Origin: a virus
Direction: 5' to 3' (one strand)
IMG/VR virus record: IMGVR_UViG_3300020159_002453
Span: 15,879-79,878 of that record
Length of the DNA: 64,000 nt
Part shown: piece after piece, positions 15,007 through 60,735 of the stretch
Layout of the letters: each line of letters begins with the position of its first letter
Numbering within the stretch: position 1 is the stretch's first letter
Program-made: the position numbers and the translations under genes
The notes under the pieces: model-generated
The model's database searches: none
Told to the model about the DNA's origin: nothing
The model's input: only the letters and a program-made list of their open reading frames with translations

Positions 15007-16614
15007 TTACACGATACGGTCTAAAAAGTGTTTAGGTAAGATCCTTCTATTATCTACAATAGTCTTAAGAGATAAACCATCTAGAAGATACGTTACACTT
15101 TCATCTTCAGCACTACGGGTACATCTACCGCAAGCTTGGATGAGAGCAATAAACATGCGCATTTTGTACCAACTTGGATCCTCATCAAAGAGCTTCTTTA
15201 CTCTCTTACTTGCTAAAGACGGATATGGTAACTTAATAACTATCTGCCACTTGCCAAGATCTCCTTTAAGATCGAGACCCATGGTAAGTGAGGGGCTAAC
15301 TAATACCGTGTCGTCTTTACGGATACTGTGCTCGGTAATAATATTCTCGTTGGTAGTGCCTTCCTCTCTGAACAAATAGCGTTTACCGTTAAGCACCCGT
15401 TGGGAGGCTTGAGTAATAGCAAAAGAGTGGGTATGAATAATACCTTTCTCACTTTGATGGGTATCAGCTAAAGTTTTTGCAATCTTAAGTACCTCGGGTA
15501 GATTCTTATCCATTGTTTTATAGTTAAGCGGAAACTTACTATGACAATAAATCGGGCTCTTCTTAGAGTCAAACGTGGATTCAATCTCTACATATTCAAA
15601 GTTCTCAATACCGAGAGTCTTAGCAAATATATTACGATCAACAATGGTTGCACTCATTAGCACAACCGTATCAGCAAAGTCAAACAAACAGTTACTAAGA
15701 CGGTCAATCTTTAAAGGGGTGAATGTCGCCTTGTCCCCGTCTTTCTCTATGATATACTGAGTTTTATCCCAGTTATCAATAGTGTAGTTAATAGACTCGT
15801 AAAGGTCTTTACGGTACTGCTGCTTAATAAGCTCCATCTTGTTATTCTCGTAACGACTACGACCTGAATACGTATCAATCGCATCCTTTACGCTTGTGGA
15901 TAGATCGGTAAGCCAACCTAAAGCTTTAGCTGGTAGCTCGGTCATAAGCTTAGGGGATACAATGTTATTAACAGCTAGTTTACGGTAATCAATTACCGTG
16001 GAGAAATTCTTTACAATCTCGTCTTCAAGTTCAGAACATTCATCTGCAACAATAAATTGACGTCGTTTAAGGTGGTCAGGTAAATTAAAAAACGAAGCGT
16101 AATTAAGTACAGTGAAGCGCTCGGTTAATGCGCTATTACGATCTTCATAATAAGGGCAACGGTGCTCGTCCCAGCACTTCTTTTTCTGTCCGTGTGCAAT
16201 TACACAAGGTGCATGATCAACCGTAAAGCTGTCATCTATATCACACTGATAATTTGACTTACCTTTAAATACAGACGATTCATTAAAAAGCTGTTTATAC
16301 TGATTTTGCAATGCCTTGGTAGTAGTGAGTGCAAACAAACCATGGGGTTTAAACTTCGCCATTGCTCCTTCATAATCTTCATCGTAAGCATGGTAATTAA
16401 AAACAAGATTGCGATACTCAGTCTCGCACTCATTCGTTACATTAGACAAAGTCTTGCTAATAAAAGACTTACCAGACCCGGTCGGTGCTTGCACAATAAT
16501 ATACTTAACTCCTTTATTGATAGCATTTTCAATATCTTGGAGGCCTTTAACCTGATGCGGACGAGGGGTATACCCTTCAGGGAAGTATTCGATCAGAGGC
16601 TTTTTAAGTACCAT
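15007..16614 (-). CDS. DinG/YoaA-family SF2 helicase
   Basis: QAPTGSGKS, DECSE, MSAT, GLDLKGD, KLPYP, QACGRCTRS and Fe-S-type Cys cluster. Confidence 0.9.
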   Translation of the reverse strand: MVLKKPLIEYFPEGYTPRPHQVKGLQDIENAINKGVKYIIVQAPTGSGKSFISKTLSNVTNECETEYRNLVFNYHAYDEDYEGAMAKFKPHGLFALTTTKALQNQYKQLFNESSVFKGKSNYQCDIDDSFTVDHAPCVIAHGQKKKCWDEHRCPYYEDRNSALTERFTVLNYASFFNLPDHLKRRQFIVADECSELEDEIVKNFSTVIDYRKLAVNNIVSPKLMTELPAKALGWLTDLSTSVKDAIDTYSGRSRYENNKMELIKQQYRKDLYESINYTIDNWDKTQYIIEKDGDKATFTPLKIDRLSNCLFDFADTVVLMSATIVDRNIFAKTLGIENFEYVEIESTFDSKKSPIYCHSKFPLNYKTMDKNLPEVLKIAKTLADTHQSEKGIIHTHSFAITQASQRVLNGKRYLFREEGTTNENIITEHSIRKDDTVLVSPSLTMGLDLKGDLGKWQIVIKLPYPSLASKRVKKLFDEDPSWYKMRMFIALIQACGRCTRSAEDESVTYLLDGLSLKTIVDNRRILPKHFLDRIV

Positions 16615-19059: not shown

Positions 19060-19641
19060 TTATAAAGATATTTTGCAGGTCGCAATAAAGATATTATCTA
19101 CCATGCTATAAAACTGCTCATGTACTTCGGTCTGAAACTTAGCAGCTTGAGATGGGGTAAGATTAGTACTAAATGCAAAAGCAGGTGCATCTTTACCAGC
19201 AGTAATATTGATACCGGTATGTCCAATAGCGACATTATCCTTCGAGTAAGTAATACTCACTGAGGCTTTACCTTTTTGCTGCACAACACCACCTTGAGCA
19301 TGCTCGGCATGAACCATAATGTCATCTCCCTTCATCTCAATAGGTTTGTTAATAATCTTTTGCAAGATGCCTGCAATAGAGGTATTAAATAGGCGTTGGA
19401 AGCAAACCGCTCCAAATGGATCAAGATTTGGAATCTCCCAGCAGAAGTTAATCATTGATTCACTATAAATGTAGTCTTTCTCGATAGAATCTTCTAAGTC
19501 GATAAGGTTAAGAGTAACCTCAACTGGAGCTACAAAAGATACGATATTACCAATAGGTAAAGTCCGGTCTCGGAAGTACTTATAAGCAAAGCGTTTGTGA
19601 ATAAAAGCCCCGTCGTATGTTTTTTGATCGTTAATAATCAT
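19060..19641 (-). CDS. DUF366-like protein (biotin/lipoate-ligase-like fold)
   Basis: YDGAFI, LIDLED, IYSESMINF, FQRLF, GDDI, KASVSI, HTGINI. Confidence 0.7.
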   Translation of the reverse strand: MIINDQKTYDGAFIHKRFAYKYFRDRTLPIGNIVSFVAPVEVTLNLIDLEDSIEKDYIYSESMINFCWEIPNLDPFGAVCFQRLFNTSIAGILQKIINKPIEMKGDDIMVHAEHAQGGVVQQKGKASVSITYSKDNVAIGHTGINITAGKDAPAFAFSTNLTPSQAAKFQTEVHEQFYSMVDNIFIATCKISL

Positions 19642-20989: not shown

Positions 20990-21643
20990 TTACAATATAA
21001 AGTATGGGGATTTGGACTCTATTTTTACTGGTAAATCTACTAGCTTGCCATCAGATAAAGTATATACAGTATTTTCCTCTAATAATTTACTACCTTCAAA
21101 CTCAGTAGAAGAAAAGTCCCCGGTATCGGTGTTAGCATACAAAGTACACGAGTTACGAGCCAAGTATATTGTGTTGTATACTTCGTCATAAGCCCAAATT
21201 GCGAAAGTACCTTCAATTTTACTTAAACCTGCAGTTAAACCAAACTTATGTATTAATCGAGGTATAATACAGCTATCAGTAGCCCCGGTAAAATCTTCTT
21301 CAAGAAAGTGTTCTTTAGCAAGTTTTTCAAAATTACTCACAATACCGTTATGAGCTACAATCCAATTTTTATACTGAAACGGGTGATTGTGGGCAGGATT
21401 AAATTGTTTTGTTTCTACAGTCGGTCCCCGAGAATGATATAGAGTATACTGTATAGGGGTTGAATACTCAGGAAACTCCGGCTCATGGTGATTAAATGTA
21501 CCAAGTGTTTTACTTACCTCTATGTAGTTTTGACCCCAACCCCCTACGGTCATTAATCCAGTACTATAACTACCTCGAACCAAATTACTTTGATATAATT
21601 TAAACGCTCTCTTAGAATTAGTAGATCCCGCTATGCCGCACAT
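20990..21643 (-). CDS. Class II (Ntn) glutamine amidotransferase
   Basis: N-terminal MCGIAG, HSRGPT, HPF, AHNGIV, TDS, LARN. Lies 3 nt downstream of queC. Confidence 0.9.
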   Translation of the reverse strand: MCGIAGSTNSKRAFKLYQSNLVRGSYSTGLMTVGGWGQNYIEVSKTLGTFNHHEPEFPEYSTPIQYTLYHSRGPTVETKQFNPAHNHPFQYKNWIVAHNGIVSNFEKLAKEHFLEEDFTGATDSCIIPRLIHKFGLTAGLSKIEGTFAIWAYDEVYNTIYLARNSCTLYANTDTGDFSSTEFEGSKLLEENTVYTLSDGKLVDLPVKIESKSPYFIL

Positions 21644-21646
21644 ATA

Positions 21647-22366
21647 TTAAAGGTATGTAAGTTCTTTGCAGTTATACTTTGACCACGGTATATCTTTGGA
21701 GTATCCAATAGGATCAATAGTCTTATTGTCGATAAAGGCTTTAATACGAGCTGAACACGATACACACTCTCCGCATGCTGGATCGGTACCTTCATAACAG
21801 GTGTGAGTTTGTCTAAAGTCTACTTGTAGATCAATGCCTTTCTTGACGACAAGGTCTTTAGAATAAGACATAAACGGTGCATTAACCTTAATCGTATTCT
21901 TACGATTTAAGTTGTACACATCGTTAACCTTATTCAGAAAAAGAGACGTACAATCCCAATAACCGGAGAAGTCATCAGTTTGTACAGCACCGTAGTGTAG
22001 ATCGCTTGCGCCAATGCTTTCAGCCCATCCAGCTGCGGTCGTAAGTAATAATAGATTTCTAAAGGGTACATAGCTTAAAGGTTGTGCGTTGCCGATATCA
22101 TCCCGGGCTTTTGGAATAGCAAGGTTGGTGTTAGTTAGTGCAGACATTGTAGAGATGTCTCTAAAGAAATCCATATTAACAATCTTATGTTCTTTCACTT
22201 TGCATACTTTAGCTTGGTACTTAGCGCATTCAATCTCCCGTACAATGCGTTGACCATAATTAAAGGTAATAGCGTAAATCTCATCGTAATTGAGTTCTTT
22301 TGCTACATAATGAAGTAATATAGAGCTATCCATACCGCCTGATAGGATTACGAGTGCTTTTGACAT
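21647..22366 (-). CDS. queC: 7-cyano-7-deazaguanine synthase
   Basis: SGGMDS, FNYGQR, YVPFRN, YWDC, TCY..CGECVSC. Confidence 0.96.
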   Translation of the reverse strand: MSKALVILSGGMDSSILLHYVAKELNYDEIYAITFNYGQRIVREIECAKYQAKVCKVKEHKIVNMDFFRDISTMSALTNTNLAIPKARDDIGNAQPLSYVPFRNLLLLTTAAGWAESIGASDLHYGAVQTDDFSGYWDCTSLFLNKVNDVYNLNRKNTIKVNAPFMSYSKDLVVKKGIDLQVDFRQTHTCYEGTDPACGECVSCSARIKAFIDNKTIDPIGYSKDIPWSKYNCKELTYL

Positions 22367-24780: not shown

Positions 24781-25236
24781 ATGTGTGCTTCTAAAAATAA
24801 CAAGTATCTTCAAGGTCTTTATAACCCTGTTAATAAAGACAAATACAAAGGAAATACTAACCCTTCGTATCGCTCGTCTTTAGAAAGAAAGTTCTTTTAT
24901 TTTTTTGATAATAATCCTAATGTGATTGCGTGGGCGAGTGAATCAATAGTGGTACCGTATTATAACAGCGTTGACAACAAGGTACATAGATATTATGTCG
25001 ATTTAATAGCAGCCATTAAAGGAGACAATGGAGAGATACAAAAGTATCTTATTGAATTAAAGCCGCACAGTCAAACACAGCCCCCAATACAGTCCAATAA
25101 AAAGAAATCGAGTACAGTTCTTTATGAGAACTTAATGTACCATCAAAATCAGTGCAAATGGAAAGCCGCAACTGAATATGCGGCTAAACAAGGAATGAAG
25201 TTTGTAGTGTTAACTGAAAAGTATTTAAACTCTTAG
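24781..25236 (+). CDS. gp4: Head completion nuclease gp4
   Basis: YNPVNKDKYKG, YRSSLE, WASE, HRYYVD, IELKP, NQCKWKAA. Confidence 0.93.
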   Translation: MCASKNNKYLQGLYNPVNKDKYKGNTNPSYRSSLERKFFYFFDNNPNVIAWASESIVVPYYNSVDNKVHRYYVDLIAAIKGDNGEIQKYLIELKPHSQTQPPIQSNKKKSSTVLYENLMYHQNQCKWKAATEYAAKQGMKFVVLTEKYLNS

Positions 25237-25960: not shown

Positions 25961-26641
25961 TTAAGTCAAGTTTTTTCTTAAAAATTCTTGTTGTACGTGA
26001 TCGGATATGAGTGAGTCGCTTTCCCCGTAAAACTCTCCTTTATCATTAATATACATACTCAGTAAAGCTAGACGCTCTTGACGACTACCATACAATGGTA
26101 TAAAAGCCGGGCAATCATCAGTATCAAAGAAACGAGAGCCAGTCTTTTCCCATGCTTTATAAATACCTTCAAATAAATGCCCGATTTCTGAACGATATAG
26201 CGGGTCAATATCCCTATTGGTCTTTGCTGTTAAAAGTACGTCGTTTTCAGCGCAAAACGGAATATAAAATATAACCGAGTAGAATTTAATAGAATTACGA
26301 ACTAAGCTTACTGTTTTATCAATAAAAGCTTCATCTACGTTCGAAGTACCTTTGTCAAACAGCCACAACGAATACACCAAGTTATCAATTGGTGTGCGAT
26401 CGTAAATGATTTTTTTCTTACCAACACTTTCCATTGCCTCATCTACAAGAAAATTAAGGATAGCCTCTTGAGACTCCTTAGTGCCTTCTTTGTTAATCGG
26501 AAGGTTTTTTTCTTTAATTAAATCTCTGTAAGACTTATTAGGAGATGAAAACATTGGCCACTTGTCTTTCATATCCTGAATAAGAGTAGACTTACCAACA
26601 CACTGAGTACCGATAATACCGATTTTATTAAGCTTTTCCAT
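25961..26641 (-). CDS. P-loop nucleotide kinase-like protein (AAA_28/NadR-like)
   Basis: IGTQCVGKST, YDRTPIDNLVY. Downstream of queE. Confidence 0.8.
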   Translation of the reverse strand: MEKLNKIGIIGTQCVGKSTLIQDMKDKWPMFSSPNKSYRDLIKEKNLPINKEGTKESQEAILNFLVDEAMESVGKKKIIYDRTPIDNLVYSLWLFDKGTSNVDEAFIDKTVSLVRNSIKFYSVIFYIPFCAENDVLLTAKTNRDIDPLYRSEIGHLFEGIYKAWEKTGSRFFDTDDCPAFIPLYGSRQERLALLSMYINDKGEFYGESDSLISDHVQQEFLRKNLT

Positions 26642-26876: not shown

Positions 26877-27686
26877 TTAAACCTTAAGTGCTCGATCCCA
26901 AACTTGTAAATGCATTCTATTAGAGAATTTAAGGTTATACTTCTTACAGATATCAGCTACAGCAGGACCAATCTTAATAAGTTCATCTCTAGAGCCGCAC
27001 ATTGGCATAATCCAGATTAGCTCTTCTGGAAGATTAATCTCTGGGTTGTTTACAAACTTTTCATACATTTCATCTAGATCTGATTCCTGTTTAGCAACAA
27101 ACTTAAAGCATGCTTTGTGCTTGATAAGGTAACGAATAACTTCTGGTTTAAAACGCTTGTCTTCCGGGTCACCGTTAACAGAAAGCTTAGGAGAAGTGGT
27201 ATAGGTTACTTCGCAGCCAGTTGTCAGCCAACCTGGGTCAGGTAAAATAGTACCATTAGTTTCAAAGTCTATATTTAAAGTTGGTCCGAGCGGTTTATCG
27301 ACAGAAGTGTCAAGTGCCTTGCTATAATCAACAAAGCCCCAGCGGTCTCTAATAAAGTGCACAAACTCCAAGAGGTTTTTTTGCTGAATAAAGGGCTCTC
27401 CGCCGGTAAGCTTGAGAAGGGCACCCTCCTTAAGACGACTATGATAATCGTTCTTTTCAAAGTATTGGGCAATCTCTTCGAATGTCATTTTGTTCTTCTT
27501 AGACCAAGAAACGTAGCTATCACAGCCAAACGGTGCGTCTGGGCTCTTGAATCCAATACAAGTAAGATTGCACATTGACAATCTCATAAACACCGATGGA
27601 TAACCAATATATTTACCTTCGCCCTCTAGGGTATAAAATACAAAGTCGTCACTTAAAAAAAGGGTCTTATTTGAATCAATAGTCAT
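26877..27686 (-). CDS. queE: 7-carboxy-7-deazaguanine synthase (radical SAM)
   Basis: FYTLEGEG, FMRLSMCNLTC(x11)CDS, TGGEP, ETNGT, SPKL, RMHLQVW. Confidence 0.95.
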   Translation of the reverse strand: MTIDSNKTLFLSDDFVFYTLEGEGKYIGYPSVFMRLSMCNLTCIGFKSPDAPFGCDSYVSWSKKNKMTFEEIAQYFEKNDYHSRLKEGALLKLTGGEPFIQQKNLLEFVHFIRDRWGFVDYSKALDTSVDKPLGPTLNIDFETNGTILPDPGWLTTGCEVTYTTSPKLSVNGDPEDKRFKPEVIRYLIKHKACFKFVAKQESDLDEMYEKFVNNPEINLPEELIWIMPMCGSRDELIKIGPAVADICKKYNLKFSNRMHLQVWDRALKV

Positions 27687-27740: not shown

Positions 27741-28187
27741 TTAAATCCTTTCATAAATTGCACTATTTCCTTCGTGTTCCCACACTTCTACCCTCTGTAC
27801 CCAGCAACGGCCTTGAGTGATATCGTTGATGTACTCATCTGCTGTACTAAAACAATAGTTTGCAAAGCGCTCAATACCTACTCCTTCAGGCATTACCACA
27901 AGTTCAATCATCTTACGCTTTTCAAGTTCCTTAAACATATCAAGATCCGGATCAACACCTGATACTACAGTCTTATGGTCGAACGTCTCTTCAAGGATAG
28001 TCTTAAGACCTTTAAGTGCACCAAAGTCGACTACCCAACTGTTGTTATCAAGTACATTACAAGTAAACCAAAACTTAGCTTGTAAACGGTAGCCGTGAAT
28101 AAACCGGCAATGACTTTCAGCAAATGGCTGTCTAAATGCACAAGAACCAAGCGGAATAACTTTAGTGGAAACGTATCTATTGCTCAT
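27741..28187 (-). CDS. queD: 6-carboxy-5,6,7,8-tetrahydropterin synthase
   Basis: HCRFIHGY, WVVDFG, FDHK, VWEHEGNSA. Confidence 0.93.
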   Translation of the reverse strand: MSNRYVSTKVIPLGSCAFRQPFAESHCRFIHGYRLQAKFWFTCNVLDNNSWVVDFGALKGLKTILEETFDHKTVVSGVDPDLDMFKELEKRKMIELVVMPEGVGIERFANYCFSTADEYINDITQGRCWVQRVEVWEHEGNSAIYERI

Positions 28188-41028: not shown

Positions 41029-43593
41029 GTGTATCGTAACATTTATTATAGTTCTAGGGATAGTACTTGCCATCTTTTTAAGTGGGACGAGCATGGCAAC
41101 CGGGTAATTGAAAGAAGCCCTTACTTACCGTACTTTTATATTGAGACTAATGCTGAGACGGCTGATGCACTATCTATCTTTAATACTAAGTTAAAGAAGA
41201 AAGTATTTCGTAATAACTACGAACGCAATAAGTCTGCTCAAGATGGTGCTATCAAACGGCTCTATCACAATATTCAGGTCGAGCAGCAATTCTTAATTGA
41301 GCAATACAAAGACGTTTACGATAAGCCTGAATTTTCTAATAATCCGCTTAAAGTATGCTTTCTTGATATCGAAGTGTACTCCCCGGATGAGTTCCCTCAA
41401 GCTAAGGATGCTAAGCACCCAATTAACTTAATTACCGTTTACGATACGCTTTCGGAAACATTTTACTCGTTTGGTGCTAAGCCCTATACCCCCACTCGTA
41501 AGAACGTAGTGTATACTGAGTGTACAAGTGAGCACGATCTATTAGAAAAGTTCTTAGAGTTTTGGGAGAAAGACTACTACCCTGATATTCTTTCAGGTTG
41601 GAATACAGATTTTTTCGATTTTCCTTACCTCATTAACCGCATTAATAATCTTTTAGGAGAAGATGCTGCAAAACGGCTTTCGCCGGTACAGAGTCTGTGG
41701 TGCCGTAAAGGTATTTTTGTTAAAGGTCAAGAGCTCGATCGTTGGTATATTCACGGTATTTCTGCAATGGATTACATGGAAGTGTATAAGGGCTTTGCAC
41801 GTGGTTTGCTTGAATCTTACGCACTTAACTTTGTCGCACAACATGAGCTTGGAGAAGGTAAGCTAGCTATTAACGCCACTAACTTAGCCGATCTTTCTGA
41901 GTCTGACTGGAACAATTTTGTTGAGTATAATATTCAGGACGTCGATCTACTTGTGAGAATGGAGAAGAAACTCCAGTTCTTTAAGATTATTCGAATGCTT
42001 GCTTATAAAGGGTTGACTAGCTTTGAAGCTGCTCTTGGTAAAGTATCTATTGTTACTGGGTGTGTTGCATTAGAAGCCTATAAGCATGGTATGGTTATAC
42101 CTACCTTTGTGGAAGGACCTACCCGGGAAGCTATTGAGGGTGGATACGTTAGAGACCCTGAAAGAGGTCTTCAAACCTCTATTGTAAGTTATGACGCTAA
42201 TTCACTATACCCTAATACTATTATTACCCTGAATATATCCCCGGAGACAAAGGTCGGTAAGATAGTTGCTAAGGATGATGAGAGTGTTACGTTACGCTTA
42301 GCTAATAATAAGGATTTCAAGCTTACTAACGAGAAGTTTATTCAGTTTGTTCAATCCGAAAAGCTTACGATATCCAAAGCTAACGTACTTTACACACAAA
42401 AGAAGAAAGGTGTGGTGCCCTCGCTTATCGATGGTCTTTATAGTGAGCGGGTTGTTAATAAGAATCAATACGTGGATTTAAAAAAGAAACTCAGTAAGTT
42501 AGATATAGCCACTGATGAATATCGAATCTGCAAAGCGAACATGGAAAGAGCTGACACTATTCAGCATGTTATCAAGATTTTGCTTAACTCTATATACGGT
42601 GTTTTTGCTAATAAGTTTAGTCCTATTTGCGATAGCGATCATGCTGGTAGTATTACTCTCACGGGTCAAGCTGTTGTTAAGCAGGCTAGTGAAATACTGG
42701 ATCAATACGCACGAGAAGTCCTTAGCTACCAGGGTAAGTCCCTCACAATCTACAACGATACTGATAGTACTCATATTACTATACAGCCTCTCCTGGACAA
42801 GAAGAATTTAAACATCTTTACAGACGGTAAAGTTAATAAAGAGGGTCTTAAGTTTATTGATGATGAACTCGGGGTCTATCTCAACGCTAAAATTAAAGAA
42901 TGGGCTAAGGACAAGTTAAACTCAATTGACCCGCGGTATTATTTTAAACGGGAATCAATTTGTGATGTTGCAGTTTACCTTGAAAAGAAACGTTACATTA
43001 TCCACGTTATTAATGATGAAGGGGCAGATGTAAGCAAGTTTAAATATGTCGGGGTTGAGATTGCCCGTTCTACCACACCTAAGAAAGCTAAAGAGCTTAT
43101 TAAAAAGGTAATTGAAAGTAGTTTATTAGTACAAGATCAGATTAAAGCTAATACTATTTATCGAGACGTGTATGATACGTTTAAAAAGCTTTCGATTGAT
43201 GATATTGCCATTAGAGGTGGGTTGAGCGATATTGAAAAACATCAAGTACGTGCAGATGGGTTTAAAATTGCTAAAGGCACCCCGAATCATGTCAAAGGCG
43301 CTATTTGGTATAATCAATTGCTTAAGCACCGTAACTTAGAAACAAAATACGAACGCATTACTTCAGGCGGTAAAGTTAAGAAGATTTATATTGCGCCGAA
43401 CAAGTATAACATCGACACACTTTGCTTCCCAGTAAGTTTTCCACCAGAATTTAAGGACTTTGAAGTTGATTACGAAGAGATGTTCGATACAATTATTAAA
43501 CCACCAGTAATTGCAGTTTATACCGCTCTCAACTGGCGTTTACCTGAAGTTAACAACCAAGCACAAACCGATCTATTTGACCTATTTACATAA
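41029..43593 (+). CDS. gp43: Family B DNA polymerase gp43
   Basis: Exo motifs FLDIE, GWNTDFFD, YNIQD. Pol motifs YDANSLYP, KILLNSIYG, YNDTDS, KKRY. Confidence 0.97.
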   Translation: MYRNIYYSSRDSTCHLFKWDEHGNRVIERSPYLPYFYIETNAETADALSIFNTKLKKKVFRNNYERNKSAQDGAIKRLYHNIQVEQQFLIEQYKDVYDKPEFSNNPLKVCFLDIEVYSPDEFPQAKDAKHPINLITVYDTLSETFYSFGAKPYTPTRKNVVYTECTSEHDLLEKFLEFWEKDYYPDILSGWNTDFFDFPYLINRINNLLGEDAAKRLSPVQSLWCRKGIFVKGQELDRWYIHGISAMDYMEVYKGFARGLLESYALNFVAQHELGEGKLAINATNLADLSESDWNNFVEYNIQDVDLLVRMEKKLQFFKIIRMLAYKGLTSFEAALGKVSIVTGCVALEAYKHGMVIPTFVEGPTREAIEGGYVRDPERGLQTSIVSYDANSLYPNTIITLNISPETKVGKIVAKDDESVTLRLANNKDFKLTNEKFIQFVQSEKLTISKANVLYTQKKKGVVPSLIDGLYSERVVNKNQYVDLKKKLSKLDIATDEYRICKANMERADTIQHVIKILLNSIYGVFANKFSPICDSDHAGSITLTGQAVVKQASEILDQYAREVLSYQGKSLTIYNDTDSTHITIQPLLDKKNLNIFTDGKVNKEGLKFIDDELGVYLNAKIKEWAKDKLNSIDPRYYFKRESICDVAVYLEKKRYIIHVINDEGADVSKFKYVGVEIARSTTPKKAKELIKKVIESSLLVQDQIKANTIYRDVYDTFKKLSIDDIAIRGGLSDIEKHQVRADGFKIAKGTPNHVKGAIWYNQLLKHRNLETKYERITSGGKVKKIYIAPNKYNIDTLCFPVSFPPEFKDFEVDYEEMFDTIIKPPVIAVYTALNWRLPEVNNQAQTDLFDLFT

Positions 43594-44343
43594 ATAGCAT
43601 TTCCAGCCTCTCCAGTTATTTTTTTTATATTTACAACTTTTTTTAGCTATTTCTCTCATCGTCCACACCGGCAAGTTATGTTTCTTACAAAATGTTTCAG
43701 ATTCTCCGATAATATCGTATTTTTCTCCAGCGGGATCAATAAAAAGCCAATGCTTAGCTCTTGAATTATATTTCCCTTTAACTGAAAGCACCCCCTCTGC
43801 AAATAAGCGCTTTCTAGTGAGACTTATTTGGCTCCCATTGTTATCGTGCGGAACCATTAATCCTTTTTTTAACTTACTATTTTTTGCGTAATAAAGTACT
43901 TTCATACGCTTTGAATGCTGCTTACGTCGCTCGAAGGTCCAAGCTTTTTTTTGCGCCTCCTGTCTTTTTTGCATAACTTCTAGAGAAGAAGTACGACCAC
44001 CCTTTTCGATTATATTTGTTAATGGACCATTATTTTTAATAACTTGACCTATTTCAGATATTAACTTTGCTTCAAGTGCGATAGATCTATCGTGAGTTAG
44101 TCCTTTCTCTACAAACACTATATAATCTTTTAAGTTAAATGTTTTTAAGTTATTAAGTACTGTTTGTTTTAACTTATTATTACCCCCGCTACCTTTCCAA
44201 ATATGTCTATATGCACGACTTCCGGTACCTTTACCCACATAAAAGGGTTCGTATTTAAACGAAGCTGAATCATAGTTAAAGCTTCCAGGCTTTAAAGGAT
44301 TAGTATAAACATACACATAAAAGGTTGATTTAACATAGTTCAT
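43582..44343 (-). CDS. GIY-YIG homing endonuclease (antisense)
   Basis: FYVYVY..PFYVGKG..R..H..LEAKLI..GPLTN. Confidence 0.85.
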   Translation of the reverse strand: MNYVKSTFYVYVYTNPLKPGSFNYDSASFKYEPFYVGKGTGSRAYRHIWKGSGGNNKLKQTVLNNLKTFNLKDYIVFVEKGLTHDRSIALEAKLISEIGQVIKNNGPLTNIIEKGGRTSSLEVMQKRQEAQKKAWTFERRKQHSKRMKVLYYAKNSKLKKGLMVPHDNNGSQISLTRKRLFAEGVLSVKGKYNSRAKHWLFIDPAGEKYDIIGESETFCKKHNLPVWTMREIAKKSCKYKKNNWRGWKCYLCK

Positions 44344-44374
44344 ATATATAATTACTAAACTAGTAACTATATTT

Positions 44375-45190
44375 ATGATTAAAATATCTCACGAATCACC
44401 TTTAAGCATGCTCGAAATGTCTCGTACGTATAATGATTATGATTATGCCCTCACACATTTGTTCGAGATTTACCCGCAGTATTATAAGTTTTTTCAAGAT
44501 AGTCTTGAACAAGGTAGATGCGTATTATTAGATTGCTCAACATTTGAGCTTGGTACTGCTTTTGATTCGGAACGATACGCATATTGGATTAACAAACTTT
44601 TACCCACCGAATACATTATTCCAGATGTGCTAGAGGATTGTAATGGTACGATTAAATCTGCTATGGACTGGAATTTTAGACTAGATTGGAATAACGTACC
44701 TCACACACAGAGTAGAATGATTGGGGTAGTGCAGGGTAAAAATTACGGGGAGCTGGTTAAATGTTATACCCATATGGATCAAGTAATGAATGTAGATAAG
44801 CTCGCTATTTCATTTGACTACTCTTATTACCGAGAAGTGTTTCCTCATCCTAACAAGTGGGTATCGTTTATGATGGGCCGAGTGATGACTCTTACTCGCT
44901 TAATGAACGATGGTGTTATTAATAAAGGTAAGCCTCACCATCTTCTTGGTTGCGCACACCCTAGAGAGTTCAGCTTTTATCAAGGACCAGAGTTTAGCTG
45001 GATTGACTCTTTGGATACCTCTTCACCTATAGTGCATGGTATCAAGAAGATCGCATACTCTGATAAGATCGGTATTTGGAATAAAGAGAGTACTAAACTG
45101 GTTGATCTACTTGATTCGGTACCAGATGCTGCTCAAGAGAAATGTATTGCAGACAACCTTGCTGCTTTCCGTAGCTACGTGAATGGATGA
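44375..45190 (+). CDS. dpdA: TGT-fold guanine transglycosylase (DpdA-like, probably DpdA3-type)
   Basis: TGT motifs in order: LLDCSTFE, IIPDVL, GVVQG, HHLLG, SLDTSS. No C-terminal Zn site. Context is que genes and the DNA polymerase. Confidence 0.75.
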   Translation: MIKISHESPLSMLEMSRTYNDYDYALTHLFEIYPQYYKFFQDSLEQGRCVLLDCSTFELGTAFDSERYAYWINKLLPTEYIIPDVLEDCNGTIKSAMDWNFRLDWNNVPHTQSRMIGVVQGKNYGELVKCYTHMDQVMNVDKLAISFDYSYYREVFPHPNKWVSFMMGRVMTLTRLMNDGVINKGKPHHLLGCAHPREFSFYQGPEFSWIDSLDTSSPIVHGIKKIAYSDKIGIWNKESTKLVDLLDSVPDAAQEKCIADNLAAFRSYVNG

Positions 45191-45422
45191 ATTAACTGAT
45201 ATTGAGGCTATTACACATAATGTGTCAATAGCTTACCCACACTTGCTTCGAGACGGGGTAACTGTAAAGGATTATTACTTTATTGATTGCCAGAAAAATG
45301 AAGTACTTCCAGTAACAGAATTTAAAGCTGTAAAGGATTACATAAAAAGTGCTGAGATCAAAGACTTTGCTATGGTAATTTCTTTTAGTAATAATATAAT
45401 AGGTTACCGCTTAAATGTATGA
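45183..45422 (+). CDS. Hypothetical protein inside the modification cassette
   Basis: 79 aa, overlaps both neighbours. Confidence 0.65.
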   Translation: MDELTDIEAITHNVSIAYPHLLRDGVTVKDYYFIDCQKNEVLPVTEFKAVKDYIKSAEIKDFAMVISFSNNIIGYRLNV

Positions 45423-46009
45423 AAAGAAGAAGCACATGGGGAGTATTATTTTCGCAATCTGGTTCAGAGATTTTAGAAGTCTCTAAACATCTTAACTGTG
45501 TGCCTGATGTTATTGTAACTAATAAGCCGGTTGAGGATATACATAAGATTAACCCAGAATTACTTGCAATAGCATTTGAAAAGTTTATCTTTTTACCTAA
45601 AAAACCCACTGTGGAAGAGTATGTTACTGCTTTAAAGCATACTGGCTTTGTTACACTACACGGATTTTTAAGAGTGTTACCCCCGGAAATTTGTTTCCGG
45701 TACAATATTTATAATGGTCATCCTGGTTTAATAACTAAGTATCCGGAGTTAAAAGGTAAAGACCCTCAAGCTAAGGTGTGGGATTCTAATGTTAATTATA
45801 GATACCATGGGCATGTTATACATAAAGTAGTTGCTGAAGTGGATGCCGGGGAAGTAACAGCATCAGCATACTTTATGAGTGAAGACATTAAAAAAGAGTT
45901 TGGTAGTTTAGATAACTACATTAAGCACTTACACCGGGTTTCAGTTAGAAATTGGGTAGCCTTTTTGAAGAAAAAAGATATACTCAACGCATCAATTTAT
46001 GGACAATAA
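45419..46009 (+). CDS. PurN-like formyltransferase (predicted preQ1 formyltransferase, DpdN-like)
   Basis: FSQSGS, LHGFLRVL, YNGHPG, HKVVAEVDAG (N/H/D catalytic residues). Confidence 0.85.
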   Translation: MKRRSTWGVLFSQSGSEILEVSKHLNCVPDVIVTNKPVEDIHKINPELLAIAFEKFIFLPKKPTVEEYVTALKHTGFVTLHGFLRVLPPEICFRYNIYNGHPGLITKYPELKGKDPQAKVWDSNVNYRYHGHVIHKVVAEVDAGEVTASAYFMSEDIKKEFGSLDNYIKHLHRVSVRNWVAFLKKKDILNASIYGQ

Positions 46010-46571
46010 CTATAAAGTAGTAATTTGTGGAGCACATTCACAAGGAAAAACTACTCTGGTAAATAAGCTAAAAGAAAATGTCGAGCTTACGCACGACTTT
46101 AAGTTTTCTTTTAGGACCAATCTTACTAGAGACTTAAGCAAACTATTGCCTATTAACGAAGCAGGAGATTCTGTTTCGCAGTATTTAATTATGGCTCGCC
46201 ATCTAGAATTTGCTTTGACTCCAGGGCGTTGGATTATGGATCGGGGTGCCTTGGATGGAGCTGCTTATAGCCGCTACTTCTATGATGAGAATAAAGTGAG
46301 TAAGAACATTATGGATGCAATTGATGAGGTATATGAACAGTGTGTACCTTATTACAATAAAGTGTTTTACATCGCACCTGAGCTACCTCTAGTAGAAGAT
46401 GGAGAACGTAGTGTAAATAAAGAATTCTTTGATGGGGTTGTAAAGCAATTTGATTTTTACACGAGACATTTTAGTGTTAGTAATAAAGTAGTATTTTTAA
46501 CTGGTTCTGTATCAGAACGTGCAAATACTGTGATTAACGCAATTAGAACCGATTTCAACAATGAGCTATAA
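45999..46571 (+). CDS. P-loop nucleotide kinase-like protein (AAA_28)
   Basis: GAHSQGKTT, MDRGALDGAAY, EDGER. Confidence 0.8.
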   Translation: MDNNYKVVICGAHSQGKTTLVNKLKENVELTHDFKFSFRTNLTRDLSKLLPINEAGDSVSQYLIMARHLEFALTPGRWIMDRGALDGAAYSRYFYDENKVSKNIMDAIDEVYEQCVPYYNKVFYIAPELPLVEDGERSVNKEFFDGVVKQFDFYTRHFSVSNKVVFLTGSVSERANTVINAIRTDFNNEL

Positions 46572-47478
46572 TACAAATAATATCGATAAAGTACTCGGAC
46601 AGAGAGTTGATTCTCCGTCTACGTATTCCCCTGACATCCTTGTACGTGAAGAACGTCAACGTAATCGCACGCATCTTGACTTGCAAAATGAATCCCTTCC
46701 TTTTGTCGGTTATGATATCTGGAACGGTTATGAATGTAGTGCAGTAACAGATGCCGGTCTACCAGTGTCTTTTGTTGCTAAAGTAGTTTATGCTGCTACT
46801 AACCCATACATTGTAGAGTCTAAGTCAATGAAGCTTTACTGGAACGGGTTTAACATGCAACCATCCGGTAAGACCCCTAAAGAAGTTCTTAAGAACGTTA
46901 AAGCTACTGCCGAAAAAGATCTTTCTGCATTGCTTGAGACGCCGGTTAAGGTAGAGTTTTACACTCAAAAATTAGAGGGGGATTACTTAAAAGAAAATGA
47001 GTGGTTTAATAGTTACGGTGGCTGGGACGTTCTTGAAGAAATTCCTGAAGCAAAGAAAATGAAATTTACTGTATTTAACGAGACCGCTGATTTGTTAAAG
47101 TTAGACGGAAAAGTTGATATAGGTTGGGTTGAGGAGCGCTATATGAGTACCCTTCTTCGTTCTAACTGCAAAATTACTAAGCAGCCAGACTCTGGGGATA
47201 TTTTTATCTATTATAAAGGTTCTAAAGCAGTAACAGAGCGCTCTCTATTAGAGTGGATTGTCTCGTTCCGTAATGAATGTCACTTCCACGAGGAGATAGT
47301 TGAGTGTGCGTTCAAACGATTATATGATTTAATAACCCCTGATGAGTTACTAGTAACAGCTTTTTATGCACGTCGTGGTGGTTGGGATATCGTACCCACA
47401 CGTGCTACCCACAAGCATCTTTTAGATAAAAATCTTATTAACGCTAAAAAACCATACTTTAAGTTCCCTAGACAGTAA
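46561..47478 (+). CDS. queF: NADPH-dependent preQ0 reductase, two-domain type
   Basis: DIWNGYE, VESKSMKLYWN, LRSNCKITKQPD, FHEEIVE, YARRGG. Confidence 0.95.
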   Translation: MSYNTNNIDKVLGQRVDSPSTYSPDILVREERQRNRTHLDLQNESLPFVGYDIWNGYECSAVTDAGLPVSFVAKVVYAATNPYIVESKSMKLYWNGFNMQPSGKTPKEVLKNVKATAEKDLSALLETPVKVEFYTQKLEGDYLKENEWFNSYGGWDVLEEIPEAKKMKFTVFNETADLLKLDGKVDIGWVEERYMSTLLRSNCKITKQPDSGDIFIYYKGSKAVTERSLLEWIVSFRNECHFHEEIVECAFKRLYDLITPDELLVTAFYARRGGWDIVPTRATHKHLLDKNLINAKKPYFKFPRQ

Positions 47479-47479
47479 T

Positions 47480-48166
47480 TCAATTTAGATATTCTACAAA
47501 CCACCCGAAACTACAACCCCGGGTGGTTTTTTTTTGGTTTTTTAAAATATAACGCATAATACTATATTCAAGTTTATGTTCGTTTACAAATTTTTTAAAA
47601 GCACCTTCACAAATATATGTTTTACCTTTTGGGTCAGTAAATAGATATTTTTTAGCTCCAGGGTTATTGATACCTTGTCTGTTTTTAGAAAGCATATTTT
47701 TATATTCAACAGATCGCTTTATACCTGTCATAGTTTTTGATATCTTTTGACGTGTTTCTAAAGAACGAACTTTACCGGCATTGCCTTTAGCAATTGCTTT
47801 ACGGTATTCTTCCCCAAACCCGTTATTTTCTAACCCACCACTATTTTTATTAGTTAATGGTCCGTCCCTATTATCCGTTCTACCTATTTTTTTGATAAGT
47901 TCGTTTTCCTGTATAAGTGCATCTCTTTCAGATAACTCACAATATACTTTTCTACTAACTATACTGTACTCACTATTTTTAATTTTATTTATTTTTGCGA
48001 TTTTATGTTTATTGTACTTCATATTGCACTCACATGTATGAGCTTTGTGTCTATTACCACAACCTTTACCAACATAAAACGGTTCGTATTCGAATTCAAC
48101 ATCTTTATATTGGTATTTTCCAGGCTTACGGCTATCCAATAATACATATACATAAAACTTATTCAT
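47480..48166 (-). CDS. GIY-YIG homing endonuclease with NUMOD3-type motif (antisense)
   Basis: FYVYVL..PFYVGKG..R..H..ENELI..GPLTN, ETRQKISK. Start MNKFY at 48166. Confidence 0.87.
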   Translation of the reverse strand: MNKFYVYVLLDSRKPGKYQYKDVEFEYEPFYVGKGCGNRHKAHTCECNMKYNKHKIAKINKIKNSEYSIVSRKVYCELSERDALIQENELIKKIGRTDNRDGPLTNKNSGGLENNGFGEEYRKAIAKGNAGKVRSLETRQKISKTMTGIKRSVEYKNMLSKNRQGINNPGAKKYLFTDPKGKTYICEGAFKKFVNEHKLEYSIMRYILKNQKKTTRGCSFGWFVEYLN

Positions 48167-48242
48167 AACAATACTTATCATTTTCATGAAGACAACCCCT
48201 TATTTTAGTTGAATTTTACAAAAACTATATTAATATAACACT

Positions 48243-51173: not shown

Positions 51174-52091
51174 GTGATCGCTAAGAACATATACGTTTTT
51201 ACAGATATAGATTTAGACGGTGCAACCAGTTTATTAGTACTACATTGGGCATTAAACGCCAAGCCTGGGGATATAAAATTCACCCCGGTTACTGTTTCCA
51301 ATTTTAGAAAAGAGTATTTAAAGTGGCTGGAAAGCGACAGCATCAGCAATTACGACAACGTAGTGTTTTTAGATTTAGATGTCAGTAATCATATTGATCT
51401 CATCGATAATAAGAAGTCTCTTGTAATCGACCACCATTCAACACATGTACGGGCATTATCGGGTTACAATCAAGCTGATGTTAGCCATGTAGTAGAGACA
51501 ACCTCTTGTGCAAAGTTAATGTATGTCGCATATAAAGACTCTTTAAAATTATCTGATAAGCAAAAATATCTTGTCGCATTAGCTAATGATTATGATTGTT
51601 ATCAACTTAAATTAGCTGAGACATACGATCTAAATTGCGCATTCAGTAACACCCAGCGCACACTCGAGAATACTCGCACTCATAAATTTGTTGAAAGATT
51701 CTATAACGGCTTTGATGAGTTGAATACTCAAGAGAAAAATATCGTTAAAGAGTATAAGACCGGTAGAGATGCTCTTATTAACAGTCTACAAGTGTTTTCC
51801 GGTAACGTAAGCATTAGCAAACAAAATATATTAGTTACTGGTACTACCGGCACCAAATATACTAATGATGTTTGCGATTATCTTTTAAAGAAATACAATT
51901 CTGACATAGTATTTTTTGTTAATACAAGTAGTACTCATGTTTCGTTTAGAAAAAAGAAAGAGTGTACTATAGATATGTCAAAGCTAGCCACCAAGCTCTG
52001 TGAAGGTGGTGGTCATGAATATGCTGCTGGTGGTAAGATTACAGACGCGTTTATGGAATTTGTAAAACAATTAACCCCGGTAAGCCAATAA
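51174..52091 (+). CDS. DHH-family phosphoesterase
   Basis: DIDLDG, FLD, IDHH, GGGH..AAG. Confidence 0.9.
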   Translation: MIAKNIYVFTDIDLDGATSLLVLHWALNAKPGDIKFTPVTVSNFRKEYLKWLESDSISNYDNVVFLDLDVSNHIDLIDNKKSLVIDHHSTHVRALSGYNQADVSHVVETTSCAKLMYVAYKDSLKLSDKQKYLVALANDYDCYQLKLAETYDLNCAFSNTQRTLENTRTHKFVERFYNGFDELNTQEKNIVKEYKTGRDALINSLQVFSGNVSISKQNILVTGTTGTKYTNDVCDYLLKKYNSDIVFFVNTSSTHVSFRKKKECTIDMSKLATKLCEGGGHEYAAGGKITDAFMEFVKQLTPVSQ

Positions 52092-55319: not shown

Positions 55320-55642
55320 TGTCTAATAAGATTACAACTCAGAGTTACTTCGTTAAAAGACTTAAAGACTCCGGTTATATCGTCTATAAGATATTTGATG
55401 AGTATAGTGAAGCAGATCCTCGTAGTTGGACGGTAATGATCGATCCTGGTCATGCGTCTATCTTTTGTACCTGTTACGTTAATCACGAAGGTATGTTCGG
55501 GGAAACCTTTTTTGAATTTTATGATGGGGGACAGTATATTCCTGAGAAGTTTAAGTTGAAAACTGACTCGATCGAGGTTATAATATCGTACCTCTTCAAA
55601 TATGGAATCAATAACAAATCAGACAACTACAGTAGCAGATAA
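55319..55642 (+). CDS. Hypothetical protein
   Basis: 107 aa, coupled to gp45. Confidence 0.7.
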   Translation: MSNKITTQSYFVKRLKDSGYIVYKIFDEYSEADPRSWTVMIDPGHASIFCTCYVNHEGMFGETFFEFYDGGQYIPEKFKLKTDSIEVIISYLFKYGINNKSDNYSSR

Positions 55643-56675
55643 AAATTTGACATTTAAATTTATGAATAATTCTAAACCATACGATTGGCTCGGAGAAGAC
55701 GTGGAGGGTAAACAGCCTTTATTTGATGCTGTTAACCACAAGTATATGGAGTCAGATCGTAACTACGACACTAACCTTAAGCCTGATAATGCTTATATTG
55801 CTACTTTGCCCGATTTGCAGAACGGCCCTTCATCTCTTATTCAAGGTGCAAATGTTGCTATTCAACAAGTAGGTATTCACAACTTTAAGCTCCCGCTTAA
55901 ATGGACTCGTCCAGATGGTACTATTATTGAACTTGAAACAGCTGTAACCGGTACTGTATCTCTTGATGCCGATAAGAAGGGTATCAATATGTCTCGTATC
56001 ATTCGTTCATTCTATGAGCATAAAGATAACGTATTTGATGCTAACTACATTGAAGACGTATTAAAGCTCTATAAGAAGAACCTCGGCACTTTTGATGCTA
56101 AGATCATTCTTAAGATCTCTTACCCTATTATTCAAAAGAGTCTTCGTTCCGGTAACGAGGGGTATCAATACTACAATATCGCTATTGAATGTAACCTTAA
56201 CCAGCAAGGTGTGTTTGACAAGATTATTCACTTTGACTTTGTATATTCTTCAGCCTGTCCCTGCTCTTTTGAACTAGGAGAACATGCCCGTAAGTACCGT
56301 AATAAAGCGGTTGTATCTCACTCGCAGCGTTCTACAGCCCGTATTTCAATAAAGTATACTGACCACATTTGGTTTGAAGAAATTCAGGCAATGTGTCTTA
56401 ATGCCCTTAAGACTGAAACTCAAGTCATGGTCAAAAGAGAAGACGAGCAAGCGTTTGCTGAACTTAACGGGGCATACTTGAAGTTTGTTGAAGACGCAAC
56501 CCGTCTACTTTATAATGAGCTTGATAAAGATAGTCGAATTATTGACTTTAAGATTGTGTGCTCTCACTTAGAATCTCTTCACTCTCACGACGCGATTGGT
56601 TGCATTGTTAAAGGGGTTATTGATGGATTTACTGCGACCGTTTCTGAGGCTGAGCTCCGTAGCTTAGTGCGTTAA
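55602..56675 (+). CDS. folE2: GTP cyclohydrolase I type B
   Basis: LPDLQ, QQVGI, KGINMSR, SACPCS, HSQRS, VKREDEQ, FVED, ESLHSHDA. Confidence 0.95.
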   Translation: MESITNQTTTVADKNLTFKFMNNSKPYDWLGEDVEGKQPLFDAVNHKYMESDRNYDTNLKPDNAYIATLPDLQNGPSSLIQGANVAIQQVGIHNFKLPLKWTRPDGTIIELETAVTGTVSLDADKKGINMSRIIRSFYEHKDNVFDANYIEDVLKLYKKNLGTFDAKIILKISYPIIQKSLRSGNEGYQYYNIAIECNLNQQGVFDKIIHFDFVYSSACPCSFELGEHARKYRNKAVVSHSQRSTARISIKYTDHIWFEEIQAMCLNALKTETQVMVKREDEQAFAELNGAYLKFVEDATRLLYNELDKDSRIIDFKIVCSHLESLHSHDAIGCIVKGVIDGFTATVSEAELRSLVR

Positions 56676-60198: not shown

Positions 60199-60735
60199 AT
60201 GAATACATTATACCGCACCAAGTGTTACACGATTGGTGCAATGGAATACGCCGACGGAAGTGATTGGCGTACTACAGTGGAGACAGCACTTAAACCACGG
60301 GATATTACCGTGTTTAACCCATACACTAAGCCATTTATTAATGACTGTGACGAATCACCAGATGTACGCGTTCGCATGAGAAATCATATGGTTCATGAGG
60401 AGTATGACTCGGTAACTAAGTGGGCTAGAGATATTCGTCGTTATGATCTTAATTTGGTAGATCGCTCTGACTTTATTATTGCTTATATTATTCCTTCAAC
60501 TGCAAGTTGGGGTACTGCTGAAGAACTTTCCACTGCAGTATCATCTCGTAAACCTATCTTTACAGTTATTGAAGGTGGTAAGGTTAATTGCCCGTTATGG
60601 CTTATGGGGCAACTTAAACATAAGTATATGTATAATTCTATTCAAGAAGCACTTGATATGATTATTAGTATTGACGAGGGAATTGTACCAATTGATAGCC
60701 CAGCGTGGAGATTACTCAAACCCGAACTAAGATAA
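60199..60735 (+). CDS. Nucleoside 2-deoxyribosyltransferase / NMP glycosidase-like protein
   Basis: YTIGAM..WR..FNP..DLNLVDRSD..SWGTAEEL. Confidence 0.82.
   Translation: MNTLYRTKCYTIGAMEYADGSDWRTTVETALKPRDITVFNPYTKPFINDCDESPDVRVRMRNHMVHEEYDSVTKWARDIRRYDLNLVDRSDFIIAYIIPSTASWGTAEELSTAVSSRKPIFTVIEGGKVNCPLWLMGQLKHKYMYNSIQEALDMIISIDEGIVPIDSPAWRLLKPELR

Follow-up and report, generated by a model that had tools for sequence, protein, structure and literature searches.

Results

In this study we have examined a window of 64,000 nucleotides (positions 15,879 to 79,878 of the virus record IMGVR_UViG_3300020159_002453), which is part of a 79,878-base IMG/VR contig from a freshwater metagenome, estimated to hold 37% of the genome of its phage. 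The main finding is that a cassette of five genes at positions 44375-47478 of the window, together with a precursor pathway encoded elsewhere in it, very probably makes up a guanine-replacement system of the DpdA3/DpdN type, an already described kind of system that is found here in a freshwater T4-like lineage. The presence of 7-(formylamino)methyl-7-deazaguanine (fdPreQ1) in the virion DNA of this phage is a well-grounded prediction from its gene content. New here are the constant pairing of DpdA3 with a kinase and the absence from DpdA3 of the insertion that binds nucleic acid in related enzymes. The names DpdA3, for a transglycosylase subfamily, and DpdN, for a formyltransferase, are those of Cui, Hutinet et al. 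(Nucleic Acids Research 2023, PMC10516641), who found 345,000 fdPreQ1 per 10^6 nucleotides and no dG in the DNA of phage immuto_2-6A. An earlier note on the window had stated that a PurN paralogue with a DpdA3-type enzyme is tied to fdPreQ1 and extensive G replacement, and this publication bears the association out.

The five open reading frames (ORFs) of the cassette all lie on the + strand. They encode a DpdA3-type transglycosylase of 271 amino acids (aa) (44375..45190), an acidic 79-aa protein of no assigned family (45183..45422), a PurN-like formyltransferase, DpdN, of 196 aa (45419..46009), a P-loop kinase of 190 aa, kinase 1 (45999..46571), and a bimodular NADPH-dependent QueF of 305 aa with QueF_N and QueF domains (46561..47478). 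Neighbouring genes overlap by 8, 4, 11 and 11 bases, which makes a single operon plausible, and the small gene between dpdA3 and dpdN is translationally coupled. All the reading frames that the earlier note had named are present where it had placed them, and its grouping of queF in one overlapping operon with the other four genes is correct. The cassette is conserved in 80 viral contigs. The phage backbone is T4-like, with UvsX, a gp41-type helicase, gp32 and a family B polymerase (gp43, 41029-43593) encoded in the window, and the best identity of this polymerase to that of any cultured phage is only about 31%.

The closest known system is that of the Flavobacterium phage immuto_2-6A, which has the same gene order, dpdA3, small ORF, dpdN, kinase and queF. 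The four larger proteins of the window are 51% (DpdA3), 49% (DpdN), 33% (kinase 1, called thymidylate kinase in immuto) and 40% (QueF) identical to their immuto counterparts, while the small ORFs are unrelated. The two phages also share the precursor pathway and a variant QueD motif. However, immuto has a family A polymerase and FolE in place of the family B polymerase and FolE2 of the window phage, and the window has in addition an amidotransferase gene after queC, a second kinase paralogue, two homing-endonuclease genes flanking the cassette and a pathway spread over four loci. Neither MazG nor a phosphoribosyltransferase was seen in the window contig, in contrast to immuto.

DpdA3 probably retains the catalytic residues of the fold and lacks most of the insertion

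The 271-aa protein gave no match in Pfam or NCBIfam and a sequence search of the PDB returned nothing useful either, so that the fold search alone identified it. An AlphaFold (AF2) model built with 40 homologues had a predicted local distance difference test (pLDDT) score of 90.5. All of its top PDB matches were tRNA-guanine transglycosylases (TGTs; Foldseek E ~1e-7), the best being the Z. mobilis TGT (VIA Z 17.6, root-mean-square deviation 3.1 A, 227 residues). Among viral models the best named match was DpdA3 of phiST (M4SLA5; template-modelling (TM) score 0.85/0.89), the protein that defines the DpdA3 subfamily (PMC10516641). In a maximum-likelihood tree the window protein belongs to a 26-member clade (100/100), all from contigs in which dpdA3 directly follows the polymerase gene. 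This clade is nested in the QueF-linked DpdA3 group that holds immuto, and CP220, whose DpdA3 is 42% identical, lies across a 99/92 branch. In the tree, the TGT-like protein of the earlier note groups with the DpdA3 of immuto and not with tRNA TGTs.

Sequence alignments show that D53, E58, D84, H189, L191, G192 and D214 are invariant in 46 diverse DpdA3 members; F57 is invariant among the closer members, and L191 is so in both alignments. The order and spacing of D53/F57/D84/L191/D214 are like those of Asp95/Phe99/Asp130/Leu236/Asp256 in the DpdA of S. Montevideo, from which we infer the equivalence of these residues. In the Salmonella enzyme Asp95 is the acid/base and Asp256 the nucleophile (PMC10164549). 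TGTs and bacterial DpdA further carry, between beta8 and alpha8, a conserved insertion called Ins8, which has a CxCx2Cx22H zinc site and binds the tRNA stem or double-stranded DNA (PMC10164549). In DpdA3 only 57 residues follow D214 and no conserved Cys or His is found among them, suggesting that the zinc site and most of Ins8 are missing. The alignments indicate an enzyme that probably retains the catalytic Asp set, without the zinc site and without most of the nucleic-acid-binding insertion. In comparison with the bacterial DpdA/DpdB system and tRNA TGTs (PMC10164549), DpdA3 shares the TIM barrel, the order and spacing of a putative Asp/Phe/Asp/Leu/Asp active-site set and the double-displacement chemistry to be expected from it; it differs in an insertion of about 35 residues instead of about 60-128 and in the lack of the structural zinc site. 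The system described here also has no DpdB-type ParB-like ATPase, and the partner of DpdA3 is instead a kinase of the small-molecule type. A role as a DpdB-like ATPase partner was considered for this kinase, but both its fold and its motifs point to a small-molecule kinase, which makes such a role less likely.

Public data contain 2,720 DpdA3 clusters when the family is grouped at 90% identity, or 1,319 when it is grouped at 50%, none with a Pfam domain. The median pI of the family, 5.5, would be compatible with DNA as well as with nucleotides as the substrate. The metagenomic proteins P0137 and P0265, each of 447 aa, are fusions of DpdA3 with DpdN, which ties the two activities together. Other fused forms of DpdA3, seen among P0122, P0210, P0174 and P0255, carry a NUMOD3 tail, DUF3310 or extensions of 160-317 aa of no known kind.

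DpdN resembles PurN and keeps its catalytic triad

DpdN matches PF00551 (Formyl_trans_N) with 28.1 bits against a cut-off of 26.1, and scores only 31.7 bits against the PurN model TIGR00639, whose cut-off is 150. A profile of the DpdN family nevertheless finds the structures of PurN (E 5e-14). N99, H101 and D142, the same in all of 34 sequences, align to the NxHPSL and DxG catalytic motifs of PurN, that is, to its Asn-His-Asp triad. An invariant N-terminal FSQxGSE loop aligns to the phosphate loop of PurN, which presumably holds the 5'-phosphate of glycinamide ribonucleotide. This alignment hints that the acceptor of DpdN may be phosphorylated, a nucleotide or DNA, rather than a free base. By analogy, the acceptors of PurN and DpdN may both be primary aminomethyl groups a few bonds away from C1' of a (deoxy)ribose 5-phosphate. 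While the fold, the triad and the phosphate-binding loop are common to both proteins, DpdN differs from PurN in being shorter and in being encoded next to, or fused with, DpdA3 and not with purine genes. In the literature, too, formyl transfer by DpdN is a prediction (PMC10516641).

The 79-aa protein between DpdA3 and DpdN has a counterpart at the same position in 25 contigs of this T4-like lineage, with identities of 40-80%. No match to it was found in Pfam, NCBIfam, PHROGs, immuto or the ESM Atlas.

A kinase accompanies DpdA3 at every locus counted

Kinase 1 matches AAA_28 at 6.5e-13. Its AF2 model (pLDDT 89) resembles the ribosylnicotinamide-kinase domain of NadR, thymidylate kinases and deoxynucleoside kinases (Foldseek TM 0.6-0.7), and the profile of the kinase family matches nucleoside and nucleotide kinases at E ~1e-5. 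Invariant in the family are G11, G16, K17, T19, R44, D81, R82, R137 and R174, which cover the Walker A and DR motifs and the lid Arg. As modelled, the fold of kinase 1 is that of a nucleoside/nucleotide kinase.

The neighbours of dpdA3 were counted at the 59 viral loci whose sequence continues for 3 kb or more beyond this gene. The kinase is present, no more than 4.5 kb downstream, at all 59 loci, QueF at 58 and DpdN, adjoining DpdA3, at 51; the kinase persists where DpdN does not. In the collection of cultured phages, this kinase and a close DpdA3 occur in the same 18 records and in no others (4 of the immuto type and 14 Campylobacter phages of the CP220 type). The kinase of CP220 is 30% identical to kinase 1. 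The word 'kinase' was not found in the 2023 paper on DpdA3 (PMC10516641), and our literature search found no paper that tests DpdA3 or assigns a role to its kinase partner. A kinase of 318 aa with a C-terminal half of no known kind was also observed, at locus L061:6123-7076.

The window contains a second member of the family, kinase 2 (25961..26641, - strand; AAA_28 1.2e-7), which lies in the queD-queE operon and had been overlooked by the earlier note. It is 25% identical to kinase 1 and keeps all the invariant kinase residues. In this lineage 26 contigs share the arrangement orf118-QueD-QueE-Kin2-orf232. A pair of kinases would suit a route with two phosphorylation steps in a row.

The window encodes a predicted route from GTP to preQ1

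The full route from GTP over preQ0 to preQ1, as proposed by the earlier note, can be identified with FolE2, QueD, QueE, QueC and the two-domain QueF, of which QueE is divergent. The first step from GTP is assigned to FolE2, GTP cyclohydrolase IB (55602..56675, + strand; PF02649 3.5e-66, NF010200 255 bits against a cut-off of 215). The use of FolE2 in place of FolE, to which the note had drawn attention, is real and not unique, since another DpdA3 locus (L046) likewise has FolE2. QueD, 6-carboxytetrahydropterin synthase (27741..28187, - strand), matches the PTPS family at 2.2e-16 and is 36% identical to QueD of immuto. Its motif (S/T)HCxxxHGY, in contrast to the canonical zinc motif CxxxHGH, is common to immuto and 47 other phage QueD proteins, and the HGY variant is presumably active because immuto has it as well. 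The radical-SAM 7-carboxy-7-deazaguanine synthase QueE (26877..27686, - strand) matches five QueE models of NCBIfam and nothing else; its identity to the QueE of immuto is 22% (E 2e-12). QueC, the preQ0 synthase (21647..22366, - strand), matches PF06508 at 3e-60 and TIGR00364 with 175 bits against a cut-off of 150. QueF has both of its domains (QueF_N 8e-25, QueF 1e-17), the motif ESKSMKLY at residues 86-93 and the catalytic cysteine in SNC at 201-203. With 214 bits against TIGR03138, under the equivalog cut-off of 293, it would be a divergent member of its family.

Four bases after queC lies a gene for a class-II (Ntn) glutamine amidotransferase (20990..21643, - strand; GATase_6/7), which starts with MCGIAG and had also escaped the earlier note. 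No homologue of it was found in immuto or CP220. The pair of QueC and amidotransferase is found in the whole lineage and at 7 unrelated DpdA3 loci, and at every locus where it was seen QueF and DpdN are encoded as well. For this reason a role as ammonia donor, which may make QueC glutamine-dependent, fits the amidotransferase better than a competing branch and is its probable function. The pathway is dispersed over four loci, as the earlier note had pointed out, and interleaved with the genes of primase, ThyX and replication proteins. This layout is a stable trait of the phage lineage.

Discussion

The results of this study suggest the following pathway. FolE2, QueD, QueE and QueC would convert GTP to preQ0, with the ammonia for QueC probably coming from the adjoining amidotransferase, and preQ0 would then be reduced to preQ1 by QueF. 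DpdA3 would remove guanine and put the 7-deazaguanine base in its place by double displacement, as TGTs do, with D214 as the nucleophile and D53 as the acid/base, and DpdN would formylate the aminomethyl group of preQ1 with 10-formyl-tetrahydrofolate as the donor. The expected outcome is fdPreQ1 in place of most or all G in the virion DNA, which would confer resistance to G-dependent restriction. Homology shows the identity of every enzyme and the orthology of the cassette to that of immuto, and from these we infer the product of this phage. The same gene order and the identities of 33-51% to a phage in which the product has been measured support fdPreQ1, as the earlier note had proposed. Some points weigh against this assignment. 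The phage is uncultured, and its contig covers little more than a third of a genome; QueE matches only the N-terminal third of the QueE models, with a best E of 1.8e-11 and scores far below their cut-offs; and the QueC-amidotransferase pair recalls Gat-QueC, which is linked to dG+ in phage 9g.

This last resemblance belongs to an alternative in which the final base is not fdPreQ1. Plain dPreQ1 is one candidate; others are a mixture in which dG+ or dADG arises through QueC and the amidotransferase, or a further derivative made with the help of the 79-aa protein or other genes. The 8 loci of the 59 without DpdN indicate that the core genes suffice for a preQ1-type base, immuto has no such amidotransferase, and the 79-aa ORF is specific to the lineage. 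However, DpdN is intact in the window, with its triad present and its gene in the same operon, and the constant association of the QueC-amidotransferase pair with QueF and DpdN fits a competing branch less well than an ammonia donor. In addition, the amidotransferase and QueC are separate genes here, with QueC first and no N-terminal fusion, and the amidotransferase, which shares no more than 25-29% of its residues with other phage amidotransferases, is not close to those of the Gat-QueC phages. A dG+ side branch is less likely than an ammonia donor, and we regard a different final base as unlikely. It is far less probable still that the pathway serves RNA, that is, that preQ1 is made for queuosine-type tRNA modification and that the TGT-like protein is a tRNA enzyme. 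TGT-fold enzymes did first become known from tRNA. However, the window protein groups with the DpdA3 proteins of phages with fully modified DNA, the tRNA-binding insertion and zinc site of bacterial TGT are missing from it, and in relatives its gene is fused in register to that of the DNA polymerase. We know of no tRNA base that is a formyl-preQ1.

Whether the base is exchanged before or after replication is a second matter. In the published view all 7-deazaguanines enter DNA after replication, because every virus with such bases has a DpdA (PMC10516641). Applied to this phage, DpdA3 would put free preQ1 or formyl-preQ1 base into finished DNA, DpdN would act on the base or on DNA, and the kinase would be an accessory that returns the released guanine to GTP or has another role in the nucleotide pool. 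We give this model somewhat less than an even chance. In its favour, tRNA TGT, bacterial DpdA with DpdB and phage DpdA1 and DpdA2 all act on polynucleotides, and DpdA3 probably keeps the Asp set of their active site. Since every exchange sets a guanine free and every new base uses up a GTP, a salvage kinase would be of use, and 21 loci of the immuto type have a phosphoribosyltransferase gene in the vicinity of FolE. On the other side, DpdA3 has lost the zinc site and most of the part that holds nucleic acid, and the kinase is like NadR-type, thymidylate and deoxynucleoside kinases and not like guanylate kinase. Genes for dNTP hydrolases stand by dpdA3 in three lineages, which would oppose a route that needs dG in DNA first, and complete replacement would be unusual for a base swap after replication. 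The statement of the earlier note that phage DpdA transglycosylases put these bases into DNA stands for DpdA1 and DpdA2, which work in an E. coli plasmid assay, and is an assumption for DpdA3, since heterologous tests of DpdA3 alone failed to give any modification in the same assay (PMC10516641).

We lean slightly, at close to even chances, to a swap on free deoxynucleotides before replication, in which case DpdA3 would be the first transglycosylase of the TGT fold to act on free (deoxy)guanine nucleotides. By this nucleotide route DpdA3 would act on dGMP or a similar nucleotide, DpdN would formylate the modified nucleotide, kinase 1, perhaps with kinase 2, would phosphorylate it, and the family B polymerase of the phage would incorporate it. 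The lean comes from the presence of the kinase beside DpdA3 at every locus counted and in the same 18 cultured records, which include CP220 with dADG, from the nucleoside or nucleoside-monophosphate type of the kinase fold, and from the reduced insertion of DpdA3. Further support is drawn from the NTP pyrophosphohydrolase or HD genes that adjoin dpdA3 in immuto (and 27 loci), CP220 and phiST, from the failure of the plasmid assay, and from the restriction of complete replacement to phages with DpdA3 (immuto, phiST and CP220), other DpdA subfamilies reaching 30% or less (PMC10516641). The ADG nucleoside has been detected in infected cells (PMC10516641), and a modified-dGTP route was once proposed for Campylobacter phages (Crippen et al. 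2019, PMC6854489, as described in papers that cite it); both agree with the nucleotide route. Several points speak against it. The authors who described DpdA3 read the insertion as post-replicative (PMC10516641), and every characterised TGT or DpdA acts on a polynucleotide (PMC10516641, PMC10164549). The kinase might rather serve to bring the guanine that is set free back to GTP, through the step from GMP to GDP, a role that fits either route. To our knowledge, no enzyme of the TGT fold acts on mononucleotides. Finally, a search of the 79.9-kb contig for MazG, HD and phosphoribosyltransferase families gave no hit, although at 37% of the genome this absence says nothing about the whole phage.

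Replacement of a base before replication is itself well known. T4 makes hmC with gp42, the dNMP kinase gp1 and the dCTPase gp56, and S-2L and phiVC8 make the Z base with PurZ, MazZ and DatZ. As is predicted for the system described here, these phages combine the complete replacement of one base with a dedicated kinase, and the NTP hydrolase that accompanies their base-making enzyme has a parallel in the sister lineages of DpdA3; the comparison is one of mechanism and not of family membership. The Campylobacter CP220 group offers a second comparison within the DpdA3 phages. CP220 is also a distant T4-like myovirus, in which DpdA3 (gp056) is followed by a kinase of the same family. However, its DNA has 100% dADG, it lacks QueF and DpdN, and its gene order is an HD-plus-P-loop protein, DpdA3 and the kinase. 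No homologue of the HD-plus-P-loop protein was found in the window contig or in the collected loci.

The DpdA3 module is widespread and the freshwater T4-like lineage described here is abundant. Given the large size of the DpdA3 family in public data, it is probably common for aquatic phages to have all of their G replaced by 7-deazaguanines. Fully modified DNA resists restriction enzymes, and it may distort surveys that depend on sequencing or on enzymes. The pairing of DpdA3 with a kinase and the lost insertion make the question of entry before or after replication directly and cheaply testable. If entry proves to be pre-replicative, it would account for the restriction of 100% replacement to DpdA3 phages, and it would bring a new enzyme activity and an enzymatic way to 7-substituted deaza-dGTPs.

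Flanking genes and other genes of the window

The earlier note had placed the cassette just downstream of gp43. This is true, with the qualification that an antisense gene for a GIY-YIG homing-endonuclease-like protein (43582..44343, - strand; PF22945) intervenes between gp43 and dpdA3. A second GIY-YIG gene (47480..48187, - strand; PF22945 1e-12) follows queF. The two proteins are 29% identical to each other and stand outside the pathway. Both genes are missing from about 30 relatives, and a 37-kb contig from an independent freshwater run (X2) skips exactly 43589-44375 and 47406-48231. Since relatives lack them and this contig joins precisely across each, both flanking genes are insertions. 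In the about 30 relatives the stop codon of the polymerase gene abuts the start of dpdA3, and in the close relatives (loci L002-L032) the two overlap, which would couple the base-swapping enzyme translationally to the replicative polymerase. A promoter-like sequence, TTGATT-N16-TATAAT (44325..44352, + strand), lies 22 bases 5' of dpdA3 and is the best match of the region (10/12). However, it is weak evidence for a promoter, because such sites show no excess over chance (22 counted against 18.3 +/- 4.1).

Several other genes of the window were also noted. A gene for a TnsA-like endonuclease (24781-25236, + strand) separates orf232 from the primase gene, is encoded on the opposite strand and, unlike the GIY-YIG genes, is present in all 26 related contigs at 70-82% identity. 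A DUF366 protein (19060-19641, - strand; PF04017 3e-21) is encoded about 1.3 kb downstream of the queC-amidotransferase pair and adjoins a family-2 glycosyltransferase. Directly after the gp41-type helicase gene there is a gene for a DHH/DHHA1 phosphoesterase (51174-52091, + strand), possibly a nucleotide or oligonucleotide phosphatase. A nucleoside 2-deoxyribosyltransferase or Rcl-like protein (60199-60735, + strand; PF05014 2e-9) has a GTAEE motif and could act on deoxynucleosides or deoxynucleotides by exchanging or removing their bases. We considered its gene as a core part of the system and rejected it, as other DpdA3 phages are without it.

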